DNA from: a virus
Strand: one strand, 5' to 3'
UHGV virus genome: UHGV-0052151
DNA: 24,638 nucleotides
Shown here: positions 3,409 to 19,813 of the stretch, piece after piece
Position numbering within the stretch: the first letter of the stretch is position 1
How the letters are laid out: each line of letters starts with the position of its first letter
Translations under genes and position numbers: made by a program
Notes under the pieces: generated by a model
What the model saw: the letters and a program-made list of their open reading frames with translations, nothing else
Databases searched by the model: none
Told to the model about the DNA's origin: nothing

Positions 3409-3855
3409 TCACCCCGCCAGCCATTGCAGAATCATGTCGCGGGTCATTGCCTCAACATCATCATTTACACCCAGAAGGCGGCGTTCTGCGTAACGGACCT
3501 CAGGTCCTTTGCTACTGACGCGATCGCGCAAGCCGTAATGGTGAACACGGGCAATGCGCTGCACCTTACCTTCAAACTGTACGCTGGCAGAATCCGCGCT
3601 GGCGGCGGTTTTCAGGTATTTTGTGGTGCGCAGCTTTGCAAACATCTGACGTTTGATGCGCCCTTTTTTACTTCGTGCTGTTACCCGTCGCGGTTCATAG
3701 CTGCTGCCGTCAGGGTTGCGCTGCATCCTGATATTCTGCTGCTGTGTCCGGCGCAGTTCCTGCGCCAGCTGGCGCATCATGCGGCTTCTTGCGGCTGGCT
3801 CCAGATTCGCCAGCAAGGCACTCAGCCAGTCGTCCACTTTCTGCAGTTCAGCCAC
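3409..3855 (-). CDS. S: Tail completion protein S
   Basis: 148 aa; GTG start at 3855 overlapping R stop; synteny R-S-V. Confidence 0.7.
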   Translation of the reverse strand: MAELQKVDDWLSALLANLEPAARSRMMRQLAQELRRTQQQNIRMQRNPDGSSYEPRRVTARSKKGRIKRQMFAKLRTTKYLKTAASADSASVQFEGKVQRIARVHHYGLRDRVSSKGPEVRYAERRLLGVNDDVEAMTRDMILQWLAG

Positions 3856-6653: not shown

Positions 6654-7304
6654 TCAGCGACTGTCATTGCGCAGTCTGCGCTCCAGCTGCTGTTTGTCTT
6701 TTTTCACGCCACAGCGAGGATCGAGCTGTAACGCATGGTTGAGATGATTAAGGGCGGAAGCCGGGTTGCTTTCACTCAGGACAGCGCCAATCGCTTTATG
6801 CAGACGCGCCCGTGACTGGTCCGGCATATCCAGACCGTCTGTCAGCTCCAGCGTCTGCAGCAACAGGTCGGCATCAAAGCCGGTGGCGGCAAGCATTGCG
6901 CTCTGCGCCGCGTCTGCCATTTCCTCTGCCAGCACGGTCTGCACGTTGCGGTTACCCAGCGGCATCACCCAGCCATGACGCAGGGCATGACGCCCGATCT
7001 CCAGCGCCCCGGCATAATCTCCGGCATCAATGCGCCACAGCATCACGTACATCAGCACGTCATCCTGTTGAGCGCCTCCGGCAGCCAGAACGCCCTCCGC
7101 CCAGGCGGCATATTTCGGCAGCAGCTCCACCTTGATTTCCGCTTTTTTGACCGTGGACTGAACGCCCTTGAGACGGCGGCGGTCTTCCGCCAGTTGCAGC
7201 AGCATCAGGTCATAGCCCGACGCGTGGCGAACACTGCCACCCTCGCGAGCGGCCTGTTCAGCCTGAACGCGCAGGCGATGCTGCCGTGCGGGACTCAGGC
7301 TCAT
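6654..7304 (-). CDS. M: Terminase small (endonuclease) subunit
   Basis: 216 aa directly downstream of N; P2 gpM position. Confidence 0.75.
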   Translation of the reverse strand: MSLSPARQHRLRVQAEQAAREGGSVRHASGYDLMLLQLAEDRRRLKGVQSTVKKAEIKVELLPKYAAWAEGVLAAGGAQQDDVLMYVMLWRIDAGDYAGALEIGRHALRHGWVMPLGNRNVQTVLAEEMADAAQSAMLAATGFDADLLLQTLELTDGLDMPDQSRARLHKAIGAVLSESNPASALNHLNHALQLDPRCGVKKDKQQLERRLRNDSR

Positions 7305-9358: not shown

Positions 9359-11125
9359 ATGAACACCACACTGACACCCGCAGATCTCGATCCCCGTCGG
9401 CAGGCCATGCTGCTGTACTTTCAGGGATACCGTGTAGCCCGCATTGCTGAAATGCTGGGCGAGAAAGTTGCAACCGTTCACAGCTGGAAGAAACGCGACA
9501 AGTGGGGTGACTATGGGCCGCTGGATCAGATGCAGCTCACCACCGCCGCACGCTACTGCCAGCTCATTATGAAGGAGCACAAAGAAGGGAAAGATTTCAA
9601 AGAGATTGACCTGCTGGCGCGCCAGTCGGAACGCCACGCGCGGATCGGCAAGTTTAACAATGGCGGCAACGAAGCCGACTTAAACCCTAACGTCGCCAAC
9701 CGCAACAAAGGCCCGCGCCGTCAGCCGGAAAAGAATGTTTTCACCGATGAGCAGATTGAGAAGCTGGAAGAAATCTTCCATTCCTCCATGTTCAACTACC
9801 AGCGCCACTGGTGGGAAGCCGGAAAAACCAACCGCATCCGCAACCTGCTGAAGTCACGCCAGATCGGCGCGACCTTTTACTTTGCCCGTGAAGCCCTGAT
9901 TGACGCTCTGCTTACCGGACGTAACCAGATTTTCCTTTCCGCCAGCAAGGCACAGGCCCACGTCTTTAAGCAGTACATCATCGACTTCGCCAAAGAAGTG
10001 GAAGTGGAGCTGAAAGGCGATCCGATGGTGCTTCCCAACGGGGCCACACTGTATTTCCTCGGCACCAATGCCCGCACGGCCCAGAGTTACCACGGCAACC
10101 TGTATCTGGATGAATATTTCTGGATACCGAAATTCCAGGAGCTGCGCAAAGTGGCTTCCGGTATGGCTATTCACAAAAAATGGCGACAAACCTATTTTTC
10201 CACGCCATCCAGCCTGACACACAGTGCTTATCCGTTCTGGTCCGGTGCGCTATTCAACCGTGGGCGCAATAAAGCCGACAAGGTGGACATCGACCTGTCC
10301 CACAGCAATCTGGCTCCAGGCCTGCTGTGTGCAGACGGGCAATACCGCCAGATAGTCACCGTGGAAGATGCGGTGCGCGGCGGCTGTAACCTGTTCGACC
10401 TTGACCAGTTGCGCATGGAATACAGCCCGGACGAATACCAGAACCTGCTGATGTGTGAATTCGTGGACGATCTCGCGTCCGTATTTCCGCTCAGCGAGCT
10501 GCAGGCATGCATGGTGGACAGTTGGGAAGTCTGGACCGACTTTCATGCACTGGCCCTGCGCCCGTTTGGCTGGCGAGAAGTGTGGATCGGTTATGACCCG
10601 GCAAAAGGTACGCAAAACGGCGACAGCGCCGGATGCGTGGTGGTGGCACCGCCAGCCGTGCCGGGTGGTAAGTTCCGCATTCTTGAGCGTCACCAGTGGC
10701 GCGGGATGGACTTCCGCGCCCAGGCTGACGCCATCAAAAAACTTACCGAACAGTACAACGTGACTTATATCGGTATCGACTCAACCGGCGTTGGTCACGG
10801 GGTTTACGAGAACGTGAAAGCGTTCTTTCCTGCCGTCCGGGAGTTTGTCTACAACCCCAACGTTAAAAACGCCCTGGTACTCAAGGCCTACGACATTATC
10901 AGCCACCGCCGTCTGGAGTTTGACGCCGGGCACACCGACATTGCGCAGTCATTCATGGCAATCCGTCGCGCAACCACCGCCAGTGGCAACCGCCCAACCT
11001 ATGAAGCCAGCCGCAGCGAAGAAGCCAGCCACGCCGATCTGGCCTGGGCAACAATGCACGCACTGTTTAACGAACCACTGCAGGGCGAGTCCGCCAATAC
11101 CAGCAATATTGTGGAGATTTTTTGA
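9359..11125 (+). CDS. P: Terminase large (ATPase) subunit
   Basis: 588 aa (P2 gpP about 590 as I recall); divergent from O; ATGA overlap with Q. Confidence 0.9.
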   Translation: MNTTLTPADLDPRRQAMLLYFQGYRVARIAEMLGEKVATVHSWKKRDKWGDYGPLDQMQLTTAARYCQLIMKEHKEGKDFKEIDLLARQSERHARIGKFNNGGNEADLNPNVANRNKGPRRQPEKNVFTDEQIEKLEEIFHSSMFNYQRHWWEAGKTNRIRNLLKSRQIGATFYFAREALIDALLTGRNQIFLSASKAQAHVFKQYIIDFAKEVEVELKGDPMVLPNGATLYFLGTNARTAQSYHGNLYLDEYFWIPKFQELRKVASGMAIHKKWRQTYFSTPSSLTHSAYPFWSGALFNRGRNKADKVDIDLSHSNLAPGLLCADGQYRQIVTVEDAVRGGCNLFDLDQLRMEYSPDEYQNLLMCEFVDDLASVFPLSELQACMVDSWEVWTDFHALALRPFGWREVWIGYDPAKGTQNGDSAGCVVVAPPAVPGGKFRILERHQWRGMDFRAQADAIKKLTEQYNVTYIGIDSTGVGHGVYENVKAFFPAVREFVYNPNVKNALVLKAYDIISHRRLEFDAGHTDIAQSFMAIRRATTASGNRPTYEASRSEEASHADLAWATMHALFNEPLQGESANTSNIVEIF

Positions 11126-12159
11126 TGGGAAAGAGTAAGAAAAACCGCGCTGCGGCGACGAATCAGATCCAGCATAAAAACCAGACTTCAGCCGAAGCAT
11201 TCAGCTTCGGTGATCCCGTTCCAGTACTTGACCGCCGCGAACTGCTGGACTATGTGGAATGTGTTCAGACAGATCGCTGGTATGAGCCTCCCGTCAGCTT
11301 TGACGGACTGGCGCGCACCTTCCGCGCTGCCGTGCATCACAGTTCCCCGATTGCAGTAAAGTGCAACATTCTGACCAGTACCTATATCCCTCATCCGCTG
11401 CTCAGCCAACAGGCTTTTTCGCGTTTTGTGCAGGACTATCTGGTATTTGGTAACGCCTACCTGGAGAAACGCACGAACCGATTCGGTGAAGTTATCGCCC
11501 TTGAGCCTGCGCTGGCAAAATACACCCGACGCGGGTTAGACCTGGATACCTACTGGTTTGTGCAATACGGTATGACAACCCAGCCGTATCAGTTCACGAA
11601 AGGCAGCATTTTTCATCTGATGGAACCGGACATCAACCAGGAGATCTACGGCCTGCCCGGCTATCTTTCTGCCATTCCATCCGCCCTGCTCAACGAATCC
11701 GCCACGCTGTTCCGCCGTAAGTATTACATCAACGGTAGTCATGCAGGCTTCATCATGTACATGACCGACGCCGCGCAGAATCAGGAGGATGTGAACAACC
11801 TCCGCAACGCGATGAAAAGCGCCAAAGGTCCAGGCAACTTCCGCAATCTGTTTATGTACTCGCCTAACGGCAAAAAGGACGGACTTCAGATTATCCCGTT
11901 GTCAGAAGTCGCAGCGAAGGATGAGTTTCTGAATATCAAGAACGTGAGCCGCGATGACATGATGGCAGCACACCGAGTGCCGCCGCAAATGATGGGGATT
12001 ATGCCTAATAATGTCGGGGGGTTTGGGGATGTGGAGAAAGCCAGCCGCGTCTTTGTTCGCAATGAGTTGATACCTCTGCAGAAGCGCCTTCAGGAATTGA
12101 ACGACTGGCTTGGAGAAGAAGTCATGCGTTTTGAAGATTATAATTTAGGTATTGAATGA
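11122..12159 (+). CDS. Q: Portal (capsid vertex) protein
   Basis: 345 aa (P2 gpQ about 344 as I recall); immediately after P. Confidence 0.9.
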   Translation: MMGKSKKNRAAATNQIQHKNQTSAEAFSFGDPVPVLDRRELLDYVECVQTDRWYEPPVSFDGLARTFRAAVHHSSPIAVKCNILTSTYIPHPLLSQQAFSRFVQDYLVFGNAYLEKRTNRFGEVIALEPALAKYTRRGLDLDTYWFVQYGMTTQPYQFTKGSIFHLMEPDINQEIYGLPGYLSAIPSALLNESATLFRRKYYINGSHAGFIMYMTDAAQNQEDVNNLRNAMKSAKGPGNFRNLFMYSPNGKKDGLQIIPLSEVAAKDEFLNIKNVSRDDMMAAHRVPPQMMGIMPNNVGGFGDVEKASRVFVRNELIPLQKRLQELNDWLGEEVMRFEDYNLGIE

Positions 12160-12164
12160 TATTT

Positions 12165-12195
12165 AAAAGCCTGTACAAACAGGCTTTTATTCTTT
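12165..12195. terminator. Bidirectional rho-independent terminator between convergent Q and cargo operon
   Basis: AAAAGCCTGT-acaa-ACAGGCTTTT hairpin with an A-run on one side and a T-run on the other, 6 nt after the Q stop. Confidence 0.6.
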
Positions 12196-12228
12196 AGTTT
12201 AAAATCACCAAGACATGAGCATTAAAAC

Positions 12229-12894
12229 TTAAAGATCCGGATCTACAGGCTCATGATATAGATTTACAGGGTAATGAATAACTTCATAATTCAGTTGAGT
12301 AACTGTGTGAACATGCTGGCTATAAAAAACCAATGGATTTTTTTGACAAGGAGTAATCGTTATAGATTTACAGGCATGAATTCTTGGTGCGAATTTATCT
12401 AAATGCGCCTTCCAGTTGCTCATCATTTCATTACATTTTCTATTACGAGTATAGATAATCAATCCACCACTTGCGCTGTCTACGGTCCCTGTACTATATC
12501 GCTCAGTGAGTTGAGCATACCCTTTAAATAAATAACTATATGAAGATGTATGTTTTTTGGCTTCGCCATGCCAAATATAATCCTTTAGTTTTATTGTAAT
12601 ATCACAATGTCCGCGCTGATTATTTTCATGATATGCTTCAATGCCCATATCTTTATTTTTGATATTGGCCAATAAAATTAAAGTAAGCTGATCTTCTGTT
12701 AAATCGAAGTTTAACTTATTTGAATTCTCTTCTATTTCCTTTACAGCAGAATCAAGTTCAATCCTGACAAATTGTTTGAAATTATCGTACGATTGAAGTG
12801 CAAATCTAACACGAGTAATAGAAGCATTAATACGCTGAAGAAAAATATCATTATCAATATCAGCCAAACTCATTGCTGCAGACATTTTTAACAT
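12229..12894 (-). CDS. Hypothetical protein, third gene of AT-rich three-gene operon; weak PD-(D/E)xK-like motif
   Basis: 221 aa; ATG at 12894 shares one base with the upstream stop (TGATG); AT-rich codons; segment GHCDITIKLKDYIWHGEAKK; no family recognised. Confidence 0.6.
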   Translation of the reverse strand: MLKMSAAMSLADIDNDIFLQRINASITRVRFALQSYDNFKQFVRIELDSAVKEIEENSNKLNFDLTEDQLTLILLANIKNKDMGIEAYHENNQRGHCDITIKLKDYIWHGEAKKHTSSYSYLFKGYAQLTERYSTGTVDSASGGLIIYTRNRKCNEMMSNWKAHLDKFAPRIHACKSITITPCQKNPLVFYSQHVHTVTQLNYEVIHYPVNLYHEPVDPDL

Positions 12895-13328
12895 CAGATA
12901 ATATCCTTTGATTTAGATTCATCTAATGTAAAAAAAGGAAATACGAATGACTTATAGTCATACATAAGCTCCCCTGTAAATGGGTTTGCTAAAGATTGAC
13001 TGATTTCCGCCTCAATAACTTCCTCTATTTCAAGTTCTACAGGGTCATGAAAATCATCAACGAACCAATAATTGAGTTTTAAAAAATCAACCTTTGGGCT
13101 ACAAAGAATTTGTATGGCCGGATAGATAACCTGCTCATACGTTTCTGGCTGTAAAACCTTATTATAACCACCAGCTATATTAAATAAATCCTTATAACTT
13201 AAAGCTATATTTGATGATTTTTTAGCCCTTGCCTCGATTTCATCGTACAAATAGCAAGCTAACGCCCCAATTTCAGGGCGTTCTGCACACATTTCTTTGA
13301 TGATCTTGGGCATATCACCATCCTTCAT
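12894..13328 (-). CDS. Hypothetical acidic protein, second gene of the operon
   Basis: Track ORF 12894-13340 (TTG); ATG at 13328 with GGAG 6 nt upstream preferred; acidic C-terminal half (EIEEVIEAEISQS...); no family recognised. Confidence 0.55.
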   Translation of the reverse strand: MKDGDMPKIIKEMCAERPEIGALACYLYDEIEARAKKSSNIALSYKDLFNIAGGYNKVLQPETYEQVIYPAIQILCSPKVDFLKLNYWFVDDFHDPVELEIEEVIEAEISQSLANPFTGELMYDYKSFVFPFFTLDESKSKDII

Positions 13329-13340
13329 TGCTGACTCCAA

Positions 13341-14447
13341 TTATAATATCAGCTTTGTGAGGGTTTCGAAATCATCTTTGGATATACATTTACTTAATAT
13401 AGCATAGTTAACAGGAGAGCAACTACTCCCTCCTAGATGCCTGCGGAGTGTTCCCGGAATGATAAGCTCTACGTTATCCGCTAATTGCAGTTTTGGATTA
13501 TTTCTATCAACTCTAATTCCAATACGATACAAACCAATACTGCCTACTGCTTTGATGCCTTCCTTATTAAACAAATCATCACGTAAGTCTTTAGTGGCCA
13601 CATTTTTCTTTTCTTTATGCGTAGTCCCCTCATTCGTCAAAAATGACAAATCAAAGACTTTATAGCTTAATTTTGAATAAGGCAATGAATTTTGTTTGAA
13701 AATTGGCTCAATTAACGGATAAAAATCTTTTTCCGATGATTTAAATTCATAACCGACATGATTATACAATTCACGAATAATGTTACTCTTTGCAAAAGTA
13801 ACATTATCACCAATAATATTACCATTAGTATCTACCAAAACATGAATTTTATTAGTAACAGAGTCTAATATACAGACATCAAAACATTGTCGCTTTTCTT
13901 TTCGCTTTGCAATAATTTCATCAAACTGCTTGTATTGCGCAAGTGCTGACGGGGGAATTTTTTCTCTTACAACTAATTCTCTGACAGATGAAAAAACAAG
14001 TATTGACTGGGTGTTTTGAATAGAATAATTAACAAGTTCAGGTTGATTTTTTACAGCATTTTGCAATTGGACATCATCAAGGATCGAATCAACCAATAAT
14101 GATGGTTGATTCATCAAATTCCATTGAAAACTAAATCTGTCATTTAGTGTTTTAATTACACTATTATCTACAGTCAAACTAAATATTGCTTTTTCACCAT
14201 AAACGACCTGACCAAAAATTAGGTCATTTACGTTTGCCATAATGCCATCAAACTTTTGCCTATCTTTACTTTTAAGATCAATGAGGCTTTCTAGTATTTT
14301 TTCGTTTGTTGCTTCACGCCCCCTACCTGTTGGCAGCCCTAAAGACGCAATAATTGGCCTTGCAACGTTCCATGTGAAACGTTCAGTTAAGGTCAAGATC
14401 GACTTTAACTCAGACTTAGAAAGCACTACTGGGACACTACCTGTCAT
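13341..14447 (-). CDS. Hypothetical protein, first gene of the operon
   Basis: Track ORF to 14456 (GTG); ATG at 14447 preceded by AGGTG; about 368 aa; no P-loop or other motif recognised. Confidence 0.6.
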   Translation of the reverse strand: MTGSVPVVLSKSELKSILTLTERFTWNVARPIIASLGLPTGRGREATNEKILESLIDLKSKDRQKFDGIMANVNDLIFGQVVYGEKAIFSLTVDNSVIKTLNDRFSFQWNLMNQPSLLVDSILDDVQLQNAVKNQPELVNYSIQNTQSILVFSSVRELVVREKIPPSALAQYKQFDEIIAKRKEKRQCFDVCILDSVTNKIHVLVDTNGNIIGDNVTFAKSNIIRELYNHVGYEFKSSEKDFYPLIEPIFKQNSLPYSKLSYKVFDLSFLTNEGTTHKEKKNVATKDLRDDLFNKEGIKAVGSIGLYRIGIRVDRNNPKLQLADNVELIIPGTLRRHLGGSSCSPVNYAILSKCISKDDFETLTKLIL

Positions 14448-14597
14448 AACTTGCACCTAGTCATCCAAAAAGCAATAAGAATTTGCTCTTGTCTTAATTT
14501 ATCCTTCGATACCTAACAAATTACCTCAATGTTGAAAAAATTTGCAAGCCATTTGCTTCTAAAAAGCGACCTTACTCAGAGTGTTACAAAACTAAGC

Positions 14598-14633
14598 GAG
14601 CGCGCGCTCGTATCCCCGCCACGCCTGCCCGCT
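14598..14633. other. Candidate cos (cohesive-end) site
   Basis: Minus strand reads GGCGTGGCGGGGATACGAG; its first 13 nt match the P2/186 19-nt cohesive end as I recall it (GGCG[A/T]GGCGGGGAAAGCA[C/T]). It sits in a GC-rich island between Q and A, where cos is expected; a 14-bp perfect palindrome CGAGCGCGCGCTCG (14598-14611) is adjacent. Confidence 0.4.
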
Positions 14634-14947
14634 TTATGTAGTGGTTTTCATGCACCTGCATGTTCTACGTAAAAGCCCGCTAGTTCTGGCGAGCCTTAGC
14701 AAAAACGATCCTTAAACGATCATGCGATTTCATGCAGCATAGTCATGCACTGTCTAAGAGAAGTGAAAGTCCGTATCTGAATGACCACTTGAAAAACGAA
14801 ACATACAGACTTACAAAGATGAAGCTCTACTGTGAGCGAGGAACATACATAGTTGCTCTGTAATAGCCAAATTTTAAGCAGGAAATCTCTTTTTTATGAC
14901 AAAACTATAAAGAAAAACAGACCGTTTCATCGCTCGATGAAAATATA

Positions 14948-16525
14948 CTACAATACTTTTCTCTCGATGGTATTTTTAATAGTCAACATATCTTTAGGAA
15001 TACTTTTTTTCCCCTCTATACGTATGGTAAACACAAAAAGAATAACGGCTGATCTCACAATTTTCATGAGTTGTAAGAGCTGTTTCTCAAACTTTTCTTT
15101 CTCAATAAACCTCACCTCATCAAAAAACCCATAAGAATTATATAAATCAACTAACATGTCTTTCTCGTGAATAACTAACAGTTTATGTTCTAAATCATTC
15201 CTCCATTCTTTAAAAAAAGCAAGCTCACCATTTTTATCATTCAAATCCATAGCAATACTAAACAAACCCAGCAATCCTTTATTATTTATTTTGTTTATTT
15301 TAAGCTTTCTTTTTTCATCACTAATCCGCCAGAAGTTATGAAAGTATATATGTCCTCTATCTGGTTTTAAATCAAATAATTGACACAGAGCAACTGCTAT
15401 TTTATCCAAGATACCAAAGCAAGCTCTAAATGCAACCCTTAACTTCTCAACATTTTCATACAATATTTCTCCATTATACAATTCAGAATAACATACCTCC
15501 GAATCCTCATCAAAAAACTCACTATCAACCTTATATTCAAAAAACATTTTTCGTGCTAAGGAATACTCAGCTTTAAGTCTATTTAACACCATTTCCATTG
15601 GCACTATAAAATCACCAAACACACCTTCCTCGGTGGTAGCAATAGTTATATTATCTTTAGATGACGCATAACAATTGCAATATAGCGAATGATCAGACAA
15701 CATTAGATTATTATCTATACAAAACCTCTGGTAGTTTGATAAAGTATCATACTCCTCCTGCGTGAGCCTTTCATCTGTACTTATATCCTCTATGCCATAT
15801 ACACATGATTCACTCAATATACTTTCGTTGTACTTTATTTTTCTTTGAAGAGCAACCTTCCATGAAGGAAAACATTTCCCTGACTTTATTGCACACTCAT
15901 AACCTCGAATAACTTCTTTAATCATTTTATATGTATATGTTGTAGATAATTCATTAAGCAATTCTAATGCCTCAGATCTGTTTACCCACGCCTGAGGAAT
16001 TGAGTTATCAATAGATATTGCTTGTTCATAATAATCCATTGATTCAGATATACGATATTGTTTTTTTAATACATTAGCTAGATTAACTATTAAATCAGGG
16101 GGCACCCATCCATCTTCTTGTGAAAGTTTAAACGCTTTCCAGTAATTATTTTTTACATCATTCAGCTTAATGAAACTATCAATATCTGCATTGTCATTAG
16201 GATTAAAATCAAGAACTGCGCTCATTCCATTTGCCAAGTTATAGTAATATAAGGATTCTTTCATTATAGTCAGAAATTCATTTTTATTGTTTATAAAGAT
16301 ATTTAAGCCTTCCTCTGCTATATTTTTTACATTACTAAAACTTCCGATATCAATAAGATTTCCGGCCAAATTAGATAATATAATTATTCTATTTTCTTTG
16401 ATTGTATTTATCTCATCGATACCGTTAAGAATATCCTTTACATTTTTATAGGCAGAATCAAATGAACCTGCATTAATAAGATCATCTACGAACCCCATTT
16501 TTGAAACAACATAGTTGATATCCAT
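14948..16525 (-). CDS. Hypothetical 525-aa protein; helical/TPR-like N-terminal region, C-terminal Rx4H (HEPN-like) motif
   Basis: ATG at 16525 with AGAGGA 6 nt upstream; strongly AT-rich; occupies the old/tin position of P2; no Walker A, no reverse-transcriptase YxDD motif; WRNDLEHK near residue 442. Confidence 0.6.
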   Translation of the reverse strand: MDINYVVSKMGFVDDLINAGSFDSAYKNVKDILNGIDEINTIKENRIIILSNLAGNLIDIGSFSNVKNIAEEGLNIFINNKNEFLTIMKESLYYYNLANGMSAVLDFNPNDNADIDSFIKLNDVKNNYWKAFKLSQEDGWVPPDLIVNLANVLKKQYRISESMDYYEQAISIDNSIPQAWVNRSEALELLNELSTTYTYKMIKEVIRGYECAIKSGKCFPSWKVALQRKIKYNESILSESCVYGIEDISTDERLTQEEYDTLSNYQRFCIDNNLMLSDHSLYCNCYASSKDNITIATTEEGVFGDFIVPMEMVLNRLKAEYSLARKMFFEYKVDSEFFDEDSEVCYSELYNGEILYENVEKLRVAFRACFGILDKIAVALCQLFDLKPDRGHIYFHNFWRISDEKRKLKINKINNKGLLGLFSIAMDLNDKNGELAFFKEWRNDLEHKLLVIHEKDMLVDLYNSYGFFDEVRFIEKEKFEKQLLQLMKIVRSAVILFVFTIRIEGKKSIPKDMLTIKNTIERKVL

Positions 16526-16812
16526 TCAATCCTCTTTAAACTAAGCTAATAATACCAATCATTATATGGATGAGATCAATATAGAACATGCCATCTCCGG
16601 CAAAAATCGTACTACATCAGACCAGTGCCCTTCAAATAATATAAATTGAACTTAGATACTTCTGCTTCAACCAGTGTGTTAAATCCATCGCTTGAACTCA
16701 GAACAAAAAGCGGACGATCACTTATCAAAATGGCCGTCCACCTAACGCCTCGTTTCACTCGTTGCCCAAAATAGTCCCCCATCAGAATGAATCCTCTTGG
16801 GGGCAACGTTTC

Positions 16813-17046
16813 TTAATGCAGCCAGCTGTCGTCTTCCCACACCTTCTGCATAATTTTCATCACTTGCTTCCTTTCTTCGTCCAGTTGCAGTCCGGTCAGT
16901 TCCACACCGTTAGAGCTACCTTTGCGAATGCGAATTACCGTTTTGGGATACAGGGGGCGCAGATTGCGGTAAAGCTCGGATTCAAGGGCGTCCAGGGTAG
17001 ACTGGCTAATCTTCTGCTCTTTATCGATCATTATTTCAATGCGCAT
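16813..17046 (-). CDS. DinI-like SOS protein (C-terminal-Tum-like)
   Basis: Track ORF 16813-17118; ATG at 17046 with GAGGTG upstream gives MRIEIMIDKEQKISQSTLDALESELYRNL...QKVWEDDSWLH, resembling the DinI N- and C-terminal patterns. Confidence 0.7.
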   Translation of the reverse strand: MRIEIMIDKEQKISQSTLDALESELYRNLRPLYPKTVIRIRKGSSNGVELTGLQLDEERKQVMKIMQKVWEDDSWLH

Positions 17047-17056
17047 AAAAGTCACC

Positions 17057-17245
17057 TCAGCTGATGACATCCATTGAGCGGTTGTATTCGTGGGTTCTGA
17101 TTTTTGCCATGAGTTCATCTGTCAGTTCAGAAACCCACTGCAGGGCCAGCCCCTTCTCTTCATCACTACACTCACTAGCCGCTACAAGCTTAAGAAAAAA
17201 ATCAATGCGCTGGAGCTTCAAAGACTCCAAAAAATAGTCCTGCAT
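17057..17245 (-). CDS. Small SOS-operon protein (possible antirepressor, 186 Tum N-terminal-like by position)
   Basis: ATG at 17245 with AGGAGG 6 nt upstream; 62 aa; LexA box 44 nt upstream; stop 10 nt before the DinI-like start. Confidence 0.45.
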   Translation of the reverse strand: MQDYFLESLKLQRIDFFLKLVAASECSDEEKGLALQWVSELTDELMAKIRTHEYNRSMDVIS

Positions 17246-17287: not shown

Positions 17288-17307
17288 ACTGTTTATATTT
17301 ACAGTAT
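17288..17307. promoter_or_regulatory. LexA operator (SOS box)
   Basis: ACTGTTTATATTTACAGTAT: perfect CTGT-N8-ACAG with AT-rich centre, immediately upstream of the small ORF/DinI-like operon; a TTTACA -35-like hexamer lies just upstream on the minus strand. Confidence 0.7.
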
Positions 17308-17398: not shown

Positions 17399-19813
17399 TT
17401 AATACAGGTTCCGCCACTTATCATCTTCCTGCAAACGCTGGTTCCGATAGAAAATACGCAGGCCTGCTCCTGACGGAATGCTGCCGCCGCGAAGGAGTAA
17501 ATCGACCTCTTTCTCGCTGCCATCAAATCCTCTGGACTTCAGTTCATAGACGAGCTGCTGTCGCTGATGATCTGTAATTCGCTGTTTGTAGTCTCTACGC
17601 CGTTTCGGTTTCACCAGGCGTAACCTTGCAGCCAGTTCCCGACGCTCTTTTTTGTTCATACTGTGCAGGTAATCGTGCAATTCCTTGTCATCCATGCGGG
17701 TGATATCCGTTCTGGTATCCCCATCAGCTGATTTGTCTTTCCCTTGTTGGTACAAATTTTCAGCAAGGGGACAGTTATTGCCACGAGTCCAAGGGGCGCA
17801 AGCGCCATGGTCGGCTGCCGCCTCCTGAACGTCAACGGCCTTACGAACCATTTTCCACTTCACGGCATGAGTGCAGATCTTGCCCTCTGCAATAGGTGAC
17901 CAGATGCCATAAATACGAATGCCGTGATCGCCATAGGCGGTCGGCTCTTCGTTGATTTCATAAGCAGTTCTGATGAGGTGATATTTACGGGGAACCAGTA
18001 CGCCGCCCTGCTTCATGATGTAGGTGGCAAAACAACCAGCATCAGCAGCAGCCAGGATTGCATCAAGCCGCGGGTTATCCAGTACCGGCGCACCTGCTTT
18101 TTTGTCACCCTGTTGCCTTGCCGCCTGACCAGCCAGCAATCGCAGTTCACGGTAAGCCTGACGCCCCGGAATGCCAAAGAAGCGGAATTGCTGAACACGA
18201 TGCAGAGACGCCCAGGCATTCACGTATTCAGCGTTATCACGCAGGGATTTACCCGTTTCCTTGCTGATCTCGCCAGCCAGACCACGCCCGTCAATGTTCT
18301 TACTGATATATTTCGCGATGTAGCTTGTCGGCGTTCCTTTGCGCGGGTTAATCAACTCAGACTTAAAGCGTGGTCCCGTGTTATTCCCCAGCTCCTCGCG
18401 GTCTTCACGAATGGCAAACTTACGCAACAAAGCAGTAATGGCGCGGCGATCTTTTTTGCGCATAAAACACAACAGGTGCCAGTGAACTGTACCGTCATGA
18501 TGCGGCTCAGCCACCCGCACGCCATACCAGCGCAATCCGGCTTTGTGCATCGCCTTACGAAATGCAGCAAACATGCCAACCAGATAATCACTGCTTTGTC
18601 TTACCGTCGCATTTGTCCAGGTCGGGTTGGGCCTGCCGTTATTTAGCGTGGAATGGAAACGTGACGGACAGGTGATGGTGTAGAAAACGGCGCAGTCACC
18701 GCGCATTTCCGCGATAAGCTCCAGGCCTTTAACACAGGCCATCATCTCATTGCGGCGATGCGCAGGGTTGCTGCTGCTGGCGTTTACCACATCCTCCATG
18801 TCCAGCGTGTCGCCGTCTTCGTTCACCAGTTCATGAGAACGGAAAAACTCCAGCGACTTACGGCGCTGCTCACGTTTATGCATCACGGCTTCATAGCTGA
18901 CATAGGGAGATGCTTTTTTGCTGACCAGACAGACAGCACGCAACTGCTCTTCCCGCCATTCGCAACGCATCTTCCATAATTTCCGATACCACCAGTCGGC
19001 GCACAGCATACGCGCCAGCGAACCCGGAATGAGTTCATAGGGCACAGGTTTGCGGCGGTTTCTTTTCCGGCGGAGTTGCTCAAACGCAGGCGGTATGACA
19101 TCCAGTCGCAGGGTTTCTGCTGCCACCTTTTCCCATGTCTTGCGGATTTCTTCCGGCTTAACATCATCGGAGGCGTACAAATCACCACAAGCGGCATCAA
19201 GGCACATACTCATATGCGCAGCTACCAGGGTGGACAGGCGTTTCACCTGATCCTGACTCATTTCAGGCAGGATCAGCAGGCCGTCCAGCCCTTCATGGCT
19301 TGCCATAAAGCGAAAAGACGCAGATAGCTGACTGTCGCGTACATGCTCCAGTCGTTCCAGACATGGCTTAATCGTCTCACGCAAATAGCGGGAATAAGCC
19401 TTTGGCCTGCTCAGGCTGCTGAAGTATTCAATACGTTGCATCAGCGGCTTGCTGATATGGGAAGGCTGGGCGTTGACGTCCGCCAGAATGACCATATCCG
19501 GATTAAAACGCTGCTGCTCATGCGCCAGCTTTGCCCGACTAATGAGCTTATCCTGTTCCATTTCGCGCTGGACAGGATCACGGGATTCATTAAAGAAATA
19601 ACGCTCCCAGACCTGATCACTCAGCGCCTCACGGCGCAGCTGTTCCTGCTCGTTATCGGCAGCGTACAGAGTGATCAGGTTTGAAAGCGCAGAAACCGGC
19701 GCAACTTCCGCCGGGTCCAGATAAGGGTTAATGGCCTTTTTCGGGCTGTTCCATGAGAATGCTGCGGCGACCTCGTTAAAGCCGCTGCAGTTGTTCATAT
19801 CAGCATGGCTCAT
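17399..19813 (-). CDS. A: Rolling-circle replication initiator (P2 gpA-like)
   Basis: 804 aa; HUH motif (VHWHLL) and paired active-site tyrosines (YIAKYISK); ATG at 19813 overlaps the dam stop (ATGA). Confidence 0.9.

Follow-up and report, generated by a model that had tools for sequence, protein, structure and literature searches.

UHGV-0052151 is a viral sequence of 24,638 nucleotides (hereafter the window, i.e. the whole stretch of DNA that was analysed), which is identical (100%) to a prophage of Escherichia coli isolate F437 (NZ_OY754398.1) and shows the gene order of P2/186-family phages. The accessory region around its cohesive-end packaging site (cos) very probably consists of two independently exchangeable cassettes, one on either side of a 151-bp packaging site, which probably function as anti-phage modules. 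The left cassette contains a three-gene operon located between the terminator of the portal gene Q and cos, and the right cassette contains a gene for a 525-aa HEPN protein located between cos and an SOS operon. These positions had been given in the initial annotation of the window and were confirmed by the coordinates, and the RefSeq and open reading frame (ORF) coordinates agree that all four cargo genes lie on the minus strand. The GC content is 0.34 in the left block, 0.52 in the core (14600-14750), 0.32 in the right block and 0.56 in the structural backbone; the AT-rich DNA thus forms two blocks and not one, as the same annotation had stated. The features of the region are as follows.

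11125-12159, plus strand: portal gene Q, homologue of P2 gpQ and 186 W (RefSeq annotation of the identical record)
12160-14599, minus strand: left cassette (cosL-to-portal slot), a variable segment at the extreme left end of the packaged DNA
12164-12199, both directions: tQ, bidirectional rho-independent terminator (hairpin at 12164-12189 with an 11-bp stem and a 4-nt loop, and a T run)
12229-12894, minus strand: operon gene 3, 221 aa (RefSeq start)
12894-13328, minus strand: operon gene 2, 144 aa (RefSeq start)
13341-14447, minus strand: operon gene 1, 368 aa (RefSeq start)
14457-14947: non-coding stretch of 491 bp
14600-14750, minus strand: conserved cos core, 151 bp (GCGCGCG, the 19-nt cohesive-end sequence and 125 bp of the right-arm side)
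14607-14625, minus strand: 19-nt cohesive-end (predicted cos cleavage) sequence, reverse complement GGCGTGGCGGGGATACGAG
14751-16802, minus strand: right cassette (cos core-to-SOS operon slot), at the position of P2 old/tin and 186 orf97
14948-16525, minus strand: gene for an LA2681-family HEPN protein with a putative TPR region, 525 aa
16813-17304, minus strand: LexA-controlled SOS operon, the conserved right border
17399-19813, minus strand: replication endonuclease gene A (by annotation), placed as in 186 and P2; marks the outer end of the gpQ-gpA hotspot

A blastn comparison with the circularly joined ends of 186 and P2 places 14600-14662, part of the GC-rich island between the two blocks, precisely on the cos of both phages, with 79% identity to 186 and 78% to P2. 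The sequence GGCGTGGCGGGGATACGAG, the reverse complement of 14607-14625, matches the 186 cos at 15 of 19 positions and is followed by CGCGCGC, thereby fitting the family pattern GGCG(A/T)GGCGGGGAAAGCA(C/T) flanked by GCGCGC. A P2 cos query allowing up to three mismatches found no match in the whole window because this lineage carries a variant cohesive end. The 19-nt sequence is identical in every relative examined, and only one cos-like sequence is present in the window. Judged from these alignments, the island is a genuine cos of the P2/186 family. The distance from cos to the portal terminator is ~140-160 bp in P2 and 186, whereas 2.4 kb of cargo lies between them here.

The initial annotation described a conserved GC-rich separator of ~490 bp. 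The separator exists and corresponds to cos, but only 151 bp (14600-14750) of the 491-bp non-coding stretch are GC-rich and conserved; the remainder is AT-rich, and its two parts (143 bp at 14457-14599 and 197 bp at 14751-14947) move with their respective cargos. In 74 loci from IMG/VR, the agreement with the consensus is mostly 0.8-1.0 over 14600-14750 and is at the random level (0.3-0.5) at 14599 and 14751, and these sharp edges of conservation therefore define a conserved cos core of 151 bp. The core is asymmetric about the cos cut: it extends for 7 bp into the left arm and for 125 bp into the right arm. Ziermann and Calendar reportedly described, in 1990, a '55-bp core' as the minimal functional cos. 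We infer that the 151-bp core corresponds to the functional cos of this lineage.

The borders of both cassettes are sharply defined in relatives. Where the left cargo differs, the alignment ends at 12083-12152 (the 3′ end of Q) and restarts at 14599-14601; where the right cargo differs, it ends at 14749-14751 (14842 in S40) and restarts at 16692-16803 (17056 in ECONIH4, which lacks the DinI-like gene of the SOS operon). All relatives carry ...GGCGTGGCGGGGATACGAG-CGCGCGC and differ from the next base on, and the relatives with retron Ec67, AIPR, PIN, a small ORF and other left cargos diverge directly after ...GAGCGCGCGC. In muskdeer13-4, the right slot is empty (about 68 bp). At the outer left border, the last ~95 bp of Q (12064-12159) are included in a high-identity tract that moves with the left cargo, as mismatches to S40 change from dense to sparse at 12064. 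The C-termini and lengths of the portal proteins vary by cargo type (341-352 aa in relatives), which means that an essential gene has its end altered when cassettes are exchanged.

The left and right contents assort independently. In a survey of 5,426 complete E. coli genomes, 1,275 of which contain this type of Q...A interval, the three-gene block was found in 21 genomes (9 at ≥99% identity and 12 at about 85%) and the HEPN block in 11 genomes. The two blocks occur together only in the source strain, i.e. in 1 of the 31 carriers of either block, and the combination found in this prophage is unique among the 5,426 genomes. Right partners of the three-gene block are a DUF6694 lipoprotein locus (6 genomes), DarTG (3), ComF with a hypothetical gene (2), DUF4145 (1) and further hypothetical genes; in 4 genomes the right slot is empty, as verified for muskdeer13-4. 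Left partners of the HEPN gene include retron Ec67, AIPR, PIN, an AAA ATPase, a P-loop NTPase, DUF262 with the insertion sequence (IS) element IS2, and a small ORF. A second sample comprised IMG/VR contigs fetched with the cos sequence as the sole bait, in which 37 loci contain both Q and A. These loci contain 27 left-slot types and 18 right-slot types in 35 distinct pairs, and the mutual information between left and right contents is no higher than in permutations (P = 0.29). The left slot is filled in 34 of the 37 loci, and both slots are filled in 26.

The two blocks also have different closest relatives, and the switch between them maps to cos. Compared with S40, which has the same left cargo and DarTG in the right slot, the window shows 5 mismatches in 12064-14638 (a tract of 99.8% identity), with dense mismatches outside both ends. 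Compared with ECCTRSRTH03, which has retron Ec67 on the left and the same HEPN gene on the right, there are no mismatches in 14600-14980 and 7 up to 17320 (99.7-100% identity), and mismatches become dense from about 17700. In the backbone, S40 and ECCTRSRTH03 each share about 95-97% identity with the window. The S40-like left tract and the ECCTRSRTH03-like right tract thus abut within 39 bp (14600-14638), centred on the cohesive-end sequence. Across the loci, the 125 bp to the right of cos show a median of 0-2 mismatches between loci that share the right cargo and differ in the left one, whereas loci with only the left cargo in common have a median of 17-18 mismatches, the same as unrelated pairs. 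As the tracts switch at cos and the core goes with the right cargo alone, the two modules meet at cos itself. The suggestion of two independent acquisitions on either side of cos is therefore borne out by the single co-occurrence among 31 carriers, the varied partners, the different closest relatives and the switch at cos; relatives that always carry both blocks around a sequence unrelated to cos were not found.

These data bear on three other explanations. The four genes may represent one composite system with mutually dependent parts on either side of cos, which had been considered in the initial annotation. The tandem arrangement on the same strand, the AT-richness of both blocks and the conceivable read-through across cos in the prophage favour such a system, but the blocks are distributed independently: besides the co-occurrence in only 1 of 31 carrier genomes and the different closest relatives, the operon is found with an empty right slot (L010) and alone in a defence island of a distant relative, and the HEPN gene is found beside at least seven other left cargos. 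A composite system is thus rejected as extremely improbable. It is also very unlikely that the whole Q-to-A interval, including both blocks and cos, was replaced in a single event from one donor phage. In favour of such an event, gpQ-gpA is commonly counted as a single hotspot (PMC9122126) and a donor of the whole interval may be unsampled, but no other genome of the 5,426 contains the combination, the left tract of the S40 type and the right tract of the ECCTRSRTH03 type switch within 39 bp at cos, and, population-wide, the cos core goes with the right cargo but not with the left one.

Least credible is that the island is a cos relic, with the functional packaging site located elsewhere and the AT-rich DNA forming one block interrupted by a fossil. 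The 2.4-kb distance of cos from the Q terminator, compared with about 140-160 bp in P2 and 186, could be taken in its favour. Against it, the window contains one cos-like sequence only, the core is near-invariant with sharp borders in the 74 loci, indicating purifying selection, and most loci show the displaced arrangement (the left slot is filled in 34 of 37 IMG/VR loci). The displaced arrangement has also been described for prophages containing retrons Ec67 and Ec86 (Dodd & Egan 1996, as cited in PMC5694545).

A two-slot layout is already known for P2-family phages and belongs to textbook knowledge, which is left unchanged by the reading of two exchangeable cassettes; what is added here is a quantitative demonstration that the slots assort independently, the exact position of their fixed borders, and the finding that the core goes with the right arm alone. 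Retrons Ec67 and Ec86 reportedly replace the DNA between cos and the tW terminator in a 186-related prophage (Dodd & Egan 1996), and the position between cosL and Q is a hotspot of foreign genes in P2-like phages (citing Dodd & Egan 1996 and Nakayama 1999; PMC5694545). The left slot of the window has the same position and borders, with cargo in place of ~140 bp between the portal terminator and cos, and ECCTRSRTH03 carries retron Ec67 at exactly this left junction, beside the same HEPN gene. It differs in that its cargo is an unannotated three-gene operon instead of a retron or toxin, and in that the junction is shown to be fixed 7 bp past cos in 74 loci. The cosL-portal slot is occupied elsewhere by ctx in phiCTX and by ORF1-4 in phiRSY1. 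The right cassette is in the old/tin (TO) position of P2, between cos and the end of the early/SOS operons, which is likewise variable and rich in defence genes; this position is the classical accessory region of P2 and was also described by Rousset et al. (2022).

The interval between gpQ and gpA has been described as a variable defence hotspot adjoining cos, which also contains partition systems and a CDT toxin (Rousset et al. 2022, PMC9122126). The region of the window fits this hotspot, and its protein accessions appear in Table S5 of that study. Gene-based surveys treat gpQ-gpA as one hotspot (PMC9122126, PMC13586616 and the preprint of Egorov et al.), whereas the interval resolves here into two independently assorting slots, of which only the right one is linked to the cos core. 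If surveys divided gpQ-gpA at cos, its 'gene arrangements' would appear roughly half as complex, and systems that are now lumped, e.g. DarTG and the three-gene operon, would be separated. The psu-int hotspot of P4 satellites (Rousset et al. 2022) contains variable DNA right after cos and (T)GCGCGC, which corresponds to the side and the junction of the left slot; it differs in being located on a satellite element and in having int, not the portal gene, as its outer border. Judged from this junction, the P4 hotspot is the positional counterpart of the left slot.

The cargos found in both slots of relatives are rich in defence systems. In the left slot, 7 of 10 proteins (one per cargo type) match PADLOC models, namely PDC-M03A, ShosA, PDC-S06, Hp1, retron RT, PtuA and PDC-S33. 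Among the right-slot cargos are DarTG, PDC-S42, a PD-Lambda-5-like system, and a ParB-like protein with a C5-methylase. From this context and the protein families described below, both cassettes of the window are probably anti-phage modules of the lysogenic-conversion type.

The three proteins of the left operon belong to PHROGs 12777, 11490 and 9664, all of which are families of unknown function, and had no match to PDB chains in sequence and profile searches. The gene 1 protein (368 aa) is basic (pI 8.8). Its best and sole significant structural match, covering most of the chain, is RdgC, a similarity at the level of fold, and it also matches the structures of IML3, CHL4 and CENP-L. These three represent the fold set reported for RexA, and RdgC is a recombination regulator (PMC11077077). 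By sequence, the protein could not be placed in the RdgC or RexA family: 36 members of the 368-aa family had no Pfam match, and a profile search of PDB sequences returned nothing. The protein thus shares a DNA-binding fold set with lambda RexA and E. coli RdgC, although RexA itself is absent from the listed matches, and differs from them in showing no sequence similarity and in having, in place of a RexB-like membrane partner, an acidic protein and a nuclease as partners. The gene 2 protein (144 aa), which matches phrog_11490, is strongly acidic (pI 4.4 and net charge −13, computed on the 148-aa ORF). The gene 3 protein (221 aa) has a PD-(D/E)xK restriction-endonuclease-like fold; the residues D98, E111 and K113 (D...ExK motif) are invariant in 36 homologues, and the motif is retained in a 29%-identical protein from a distant homologue of the operon (L143; see below). 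Based on the predicted folds, the 221-aa protein is a putative nuclease effector and the 368-aa protein a putative DNA-binding sensor, and the 144-aa protein is possibly an adaptor or inhibitor. The RdgC/RexA-fold protein would sense phage DNA or replication/recombination intermediates and would then release or activate the PD-(D/E)xK nuclease, with the acidic protein acting as adaptor or inhibitor. The folds and the genomic context make it plausible that the operon is a DNA-sensing nuclease defence system.

Close homologues of the operon are confined to Enterobacterales, and the same cos-operon-portal position is found in Pantoea, Serratia and Klebsiella KP12. 'Phage KP12' (Klebsiella) is the only phage record with a homologous operon at the protein level, and a megablast search of the region against phage records returned matches to the backbone only. 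A profile search with the 368-aa protein family yielded about 424 clusters at 50% identity; ten distant relatives sampled from it had no Pfam or PADLOC match. In contig L143 (1-7718; Logan SRR13374101), the whole unit is kept (350 + 137 + 206 aa) at about 30% identity and has Mrr_cat, N6-methylase/MmeI, Eco57I and ResIII-helicase genes immediately upstream and an integrase gene downstream, a defence-island setting outside P2-like phages. The operon is an unannotated candidate for an anti-phage system, being mobile, clearly bounded and equipped with a recognisable effector.

The operon resembles Rst_3HP (pFR109, active against P1) in being a three-gene operon without recognisable domains in a cos-proximal hotspot of a P2-like phage. 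Identity with the Rst_3HP of Rousset et al. was rejected, as the PADLOC Hp1 model gave no match and blastp against the pFR109 proteins found nothing below E = 0.4. A 3HP-like system (PADLOC Hp1, E = 1e-66) is present in the left slot of an IMG/VR locus (L025), and the validated Rst_3HP of E. coli E1114 (pFR109; PMC9122126, Table S2A) is located in the right slot, between cos and DinI, which shows that systems of one kind may sit to the left or to the right of cos. A P4-like satellite of Providencia manganoxydans also contains a copy of the three-gene operon (L015, 6001-8224; 41% identity). The gene order of this satellite is integrase, alpha-type primase, operon, psu and delta, and the operon is about 2.4 kb from the cos of the element (10623-10634). 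This copy contrasts with a 2026 survey in which P2 and P4 almost never share defence genes.

In the right cassette, residues 309-504 of the 525-aa protein match Pfam PF18733 (HEPN_LA2681) with 132.4 bits (cutoff, 27; E = 1.8e-38), and the Rx4H motif is present as RNDLEH at residues 442-447. In the LA2681 family, the catalytic motif is conserved and the domain is 'fused to TPR', and the HEPN superfamily is tied to abortive infection (Anantharaman et al. 2013, PMC3710099). The protein resembles this family in its strong Pfam match and its Rx4H motif, and may do so in an N-terminal TPR-like region, for which the matches are weak; by its family relationship, its most likely role is that of an abortive-infection RNase. 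No experimental characterisation of the LA2681 family as a defence system was found. A HEPN-TPR protein tested by Rousset et al. (pFR83, originating from P4) is listed in their Table S2B (additionally tested) and not in Table S2A (validated).

It is rather unlikely, yet deserves more weight than the explanations discussed above, that the two cassettes are ordinary morons serving host fitness or prophage maintenance, with the operon perhaps acting as an accessory to DNA repair or recombination. Such a role would agree with the lack of matches of the three operon proteins to known defence models, with the function of RdgC itself as a recombination regulator (PMC11077077), and with the lipoproteins and the LysR + SDR pair in the right slot and the partition systems and CDT toxin of the hotspot (PMC9122126). 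On the other hand, known or candidate defence systems dominate the same slot in relatives, the distant operon homologue lies among restriction-type genes, a nuclease combined with a DNA-binding protein and a small acidic one would be a common defence layout, and the superfamily of the LA2681 HEPN domain is tied to abortive infection (PMC3710099). The reading of two exchangeable anti-phage modules is therefore retained, with several points weighing against it. The three operon proteins have no match in Pfam, PADLOC or NCBIfam, and the similarity of the 368-aa protein to RdgC is at the fold level only (TM 0.32-0.39, 8-10% identity). The matches of residues 145-174 of the 525-aa protein to TPR_10, TPR_8 and TPR_2 are weak and below the gathering scores (PADLOC TPR model, E = 3.5e-4), and the right-slot lipoproteins and LysR + SDR pair are not defence-like. 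The association tests are based on small, phylogenetically non-independent samples and on our own clustering thresholds, with an unambiguous direction. Terminase cleavage at 14607/14625 is a prediction for this phage, and a scan for promoters of the cassettes yielded 22 sites compared with 22.3 expected, so that none is claimed.

The two cassettes are neighbours in the prophage and in the circular form but would lie at opposite ends of the packaged linear chromosome, where the three-gene operon would start about 150 bp inside the left cohesive end and the HEPN gene would be located just inside the 125-bp right-end part of cos. The initial annotation placed two insertions at adjacent points. 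The points are indeed separate, but their adjacency is restricted to the prophage and the circle, and the events are replacements of cassettes with fixed borders and not insertions. In the model proposed here, each cassette would be replaced as a unit with fixed inner borders at 7 bp (left) and 125 bp (right) beyond the cut site; borders nearer to cos would presumably destroy packaging. The outer crossover would occur in the conserved flanking genes, i.e. in the 3′ end of Q on the left and in the SOS operon or A on the right. The joint at cos may be formed by homologous recombination in the invariant ~26-39 bp or by annealing of the cohesive ends of two co-resident genomes; the joining of cohesive ends between genomes has been raised as a speculation by Rousset et al. 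(PMC9122126). The combined proposal that the cut site is the exchange point, through cohesive-end ligation of co-resident genomes, and that the left cassette represents a new defence family is offered tentatively and is more doubtful than probable. Cohesive-end exchange, if true, would explain the location of the left border 7 bp from the cut, the linkage of the core to the right side and the left-type junction of P4, and left-end and right-end cassettes would reassort like the arms of cloning vectors. As the borders are sharp and fixed and the core goes with the right arm only, the mechanism is testable, i.e. cohesive-end joining can be set against short-homology recombination.

Further features of the window outside the cassettes are listed below.

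Upstream of Q: capsid and terminase genes, at the start of the structural gene order (RefSeq annotation of the identical record)
9359-11125, plus strand: terminase P
16813-17046, minus strand: DinI-like gene of the SOS operon (Pfam DinI, 1.3e-22)
17057-17245, minus strand: 62-aa gene of the SOS operon
17289-17304: LexA box CTGTTTATATTTACAG, perfect and the sole CTGT-N8-ACAG match in the window
Beyond gene A: dam, cII, CI and integrase (by annotation)

The SOS operon is the equivalent of p95/tum in 186, with a LexA box 5′ of a DinI/Tum-like gene that adjoins the end of gene A. The terminator tQ, whose position is the counterpart of P2 tQ and 186 tW, is predicted from its hairpin to terminate both Q on the plus strand and the three-gene operon on the minus strand. 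The GCGCGC palindrome beside cos and the first bases of the cargo (14597-14610) can fold, on the minus strand, into a short hairpin with a T-rich run behind it (CGAGCGCGCGCTCG CTTAGTTTTG); located just upstream of the three-gene operon, this hairpin might limit read-through from the HEPN gene across cos. A minus-strand ORF of 64 aa (16612-16806), located between the start of the HEPN gene and the stop of the DinI-like gene, has neither a RefSeq annotation nor a family match and is probably non-coding promoter/terminator DNA of the right cassette.

Several minor observations were made in the related loci. IS elements were found in or near the slots: the right slot of S40 contains an IS5-family remnant by DarTG (L002, 3915-4022), in ECONIH4, the right-slot gene for the DUF6694 lipoprotein is interrupted by IS1 (L009, 4308-5005), and DSM 103246 contains IS2 in the Q...A interval together with the DUF262 cargo. 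A contig derived from a Pantoea-type prophage (L017, 1-16; Logan SRR20907453) starts 4 nt before the cohesive-end sequence, which may reflect reads of linear virion DNA ending near cos or may be a coincidence. An IMG/VR contig (L092, 992-8979) contains two inverted Q - left slot - cos - DinI segments that face each other, with copies 81-92% identical and cos at 3442-3465 (minus strand) and 6704-6727 (plus strand); it represents either two head-to-head prophage remnants or an assembly chimera.

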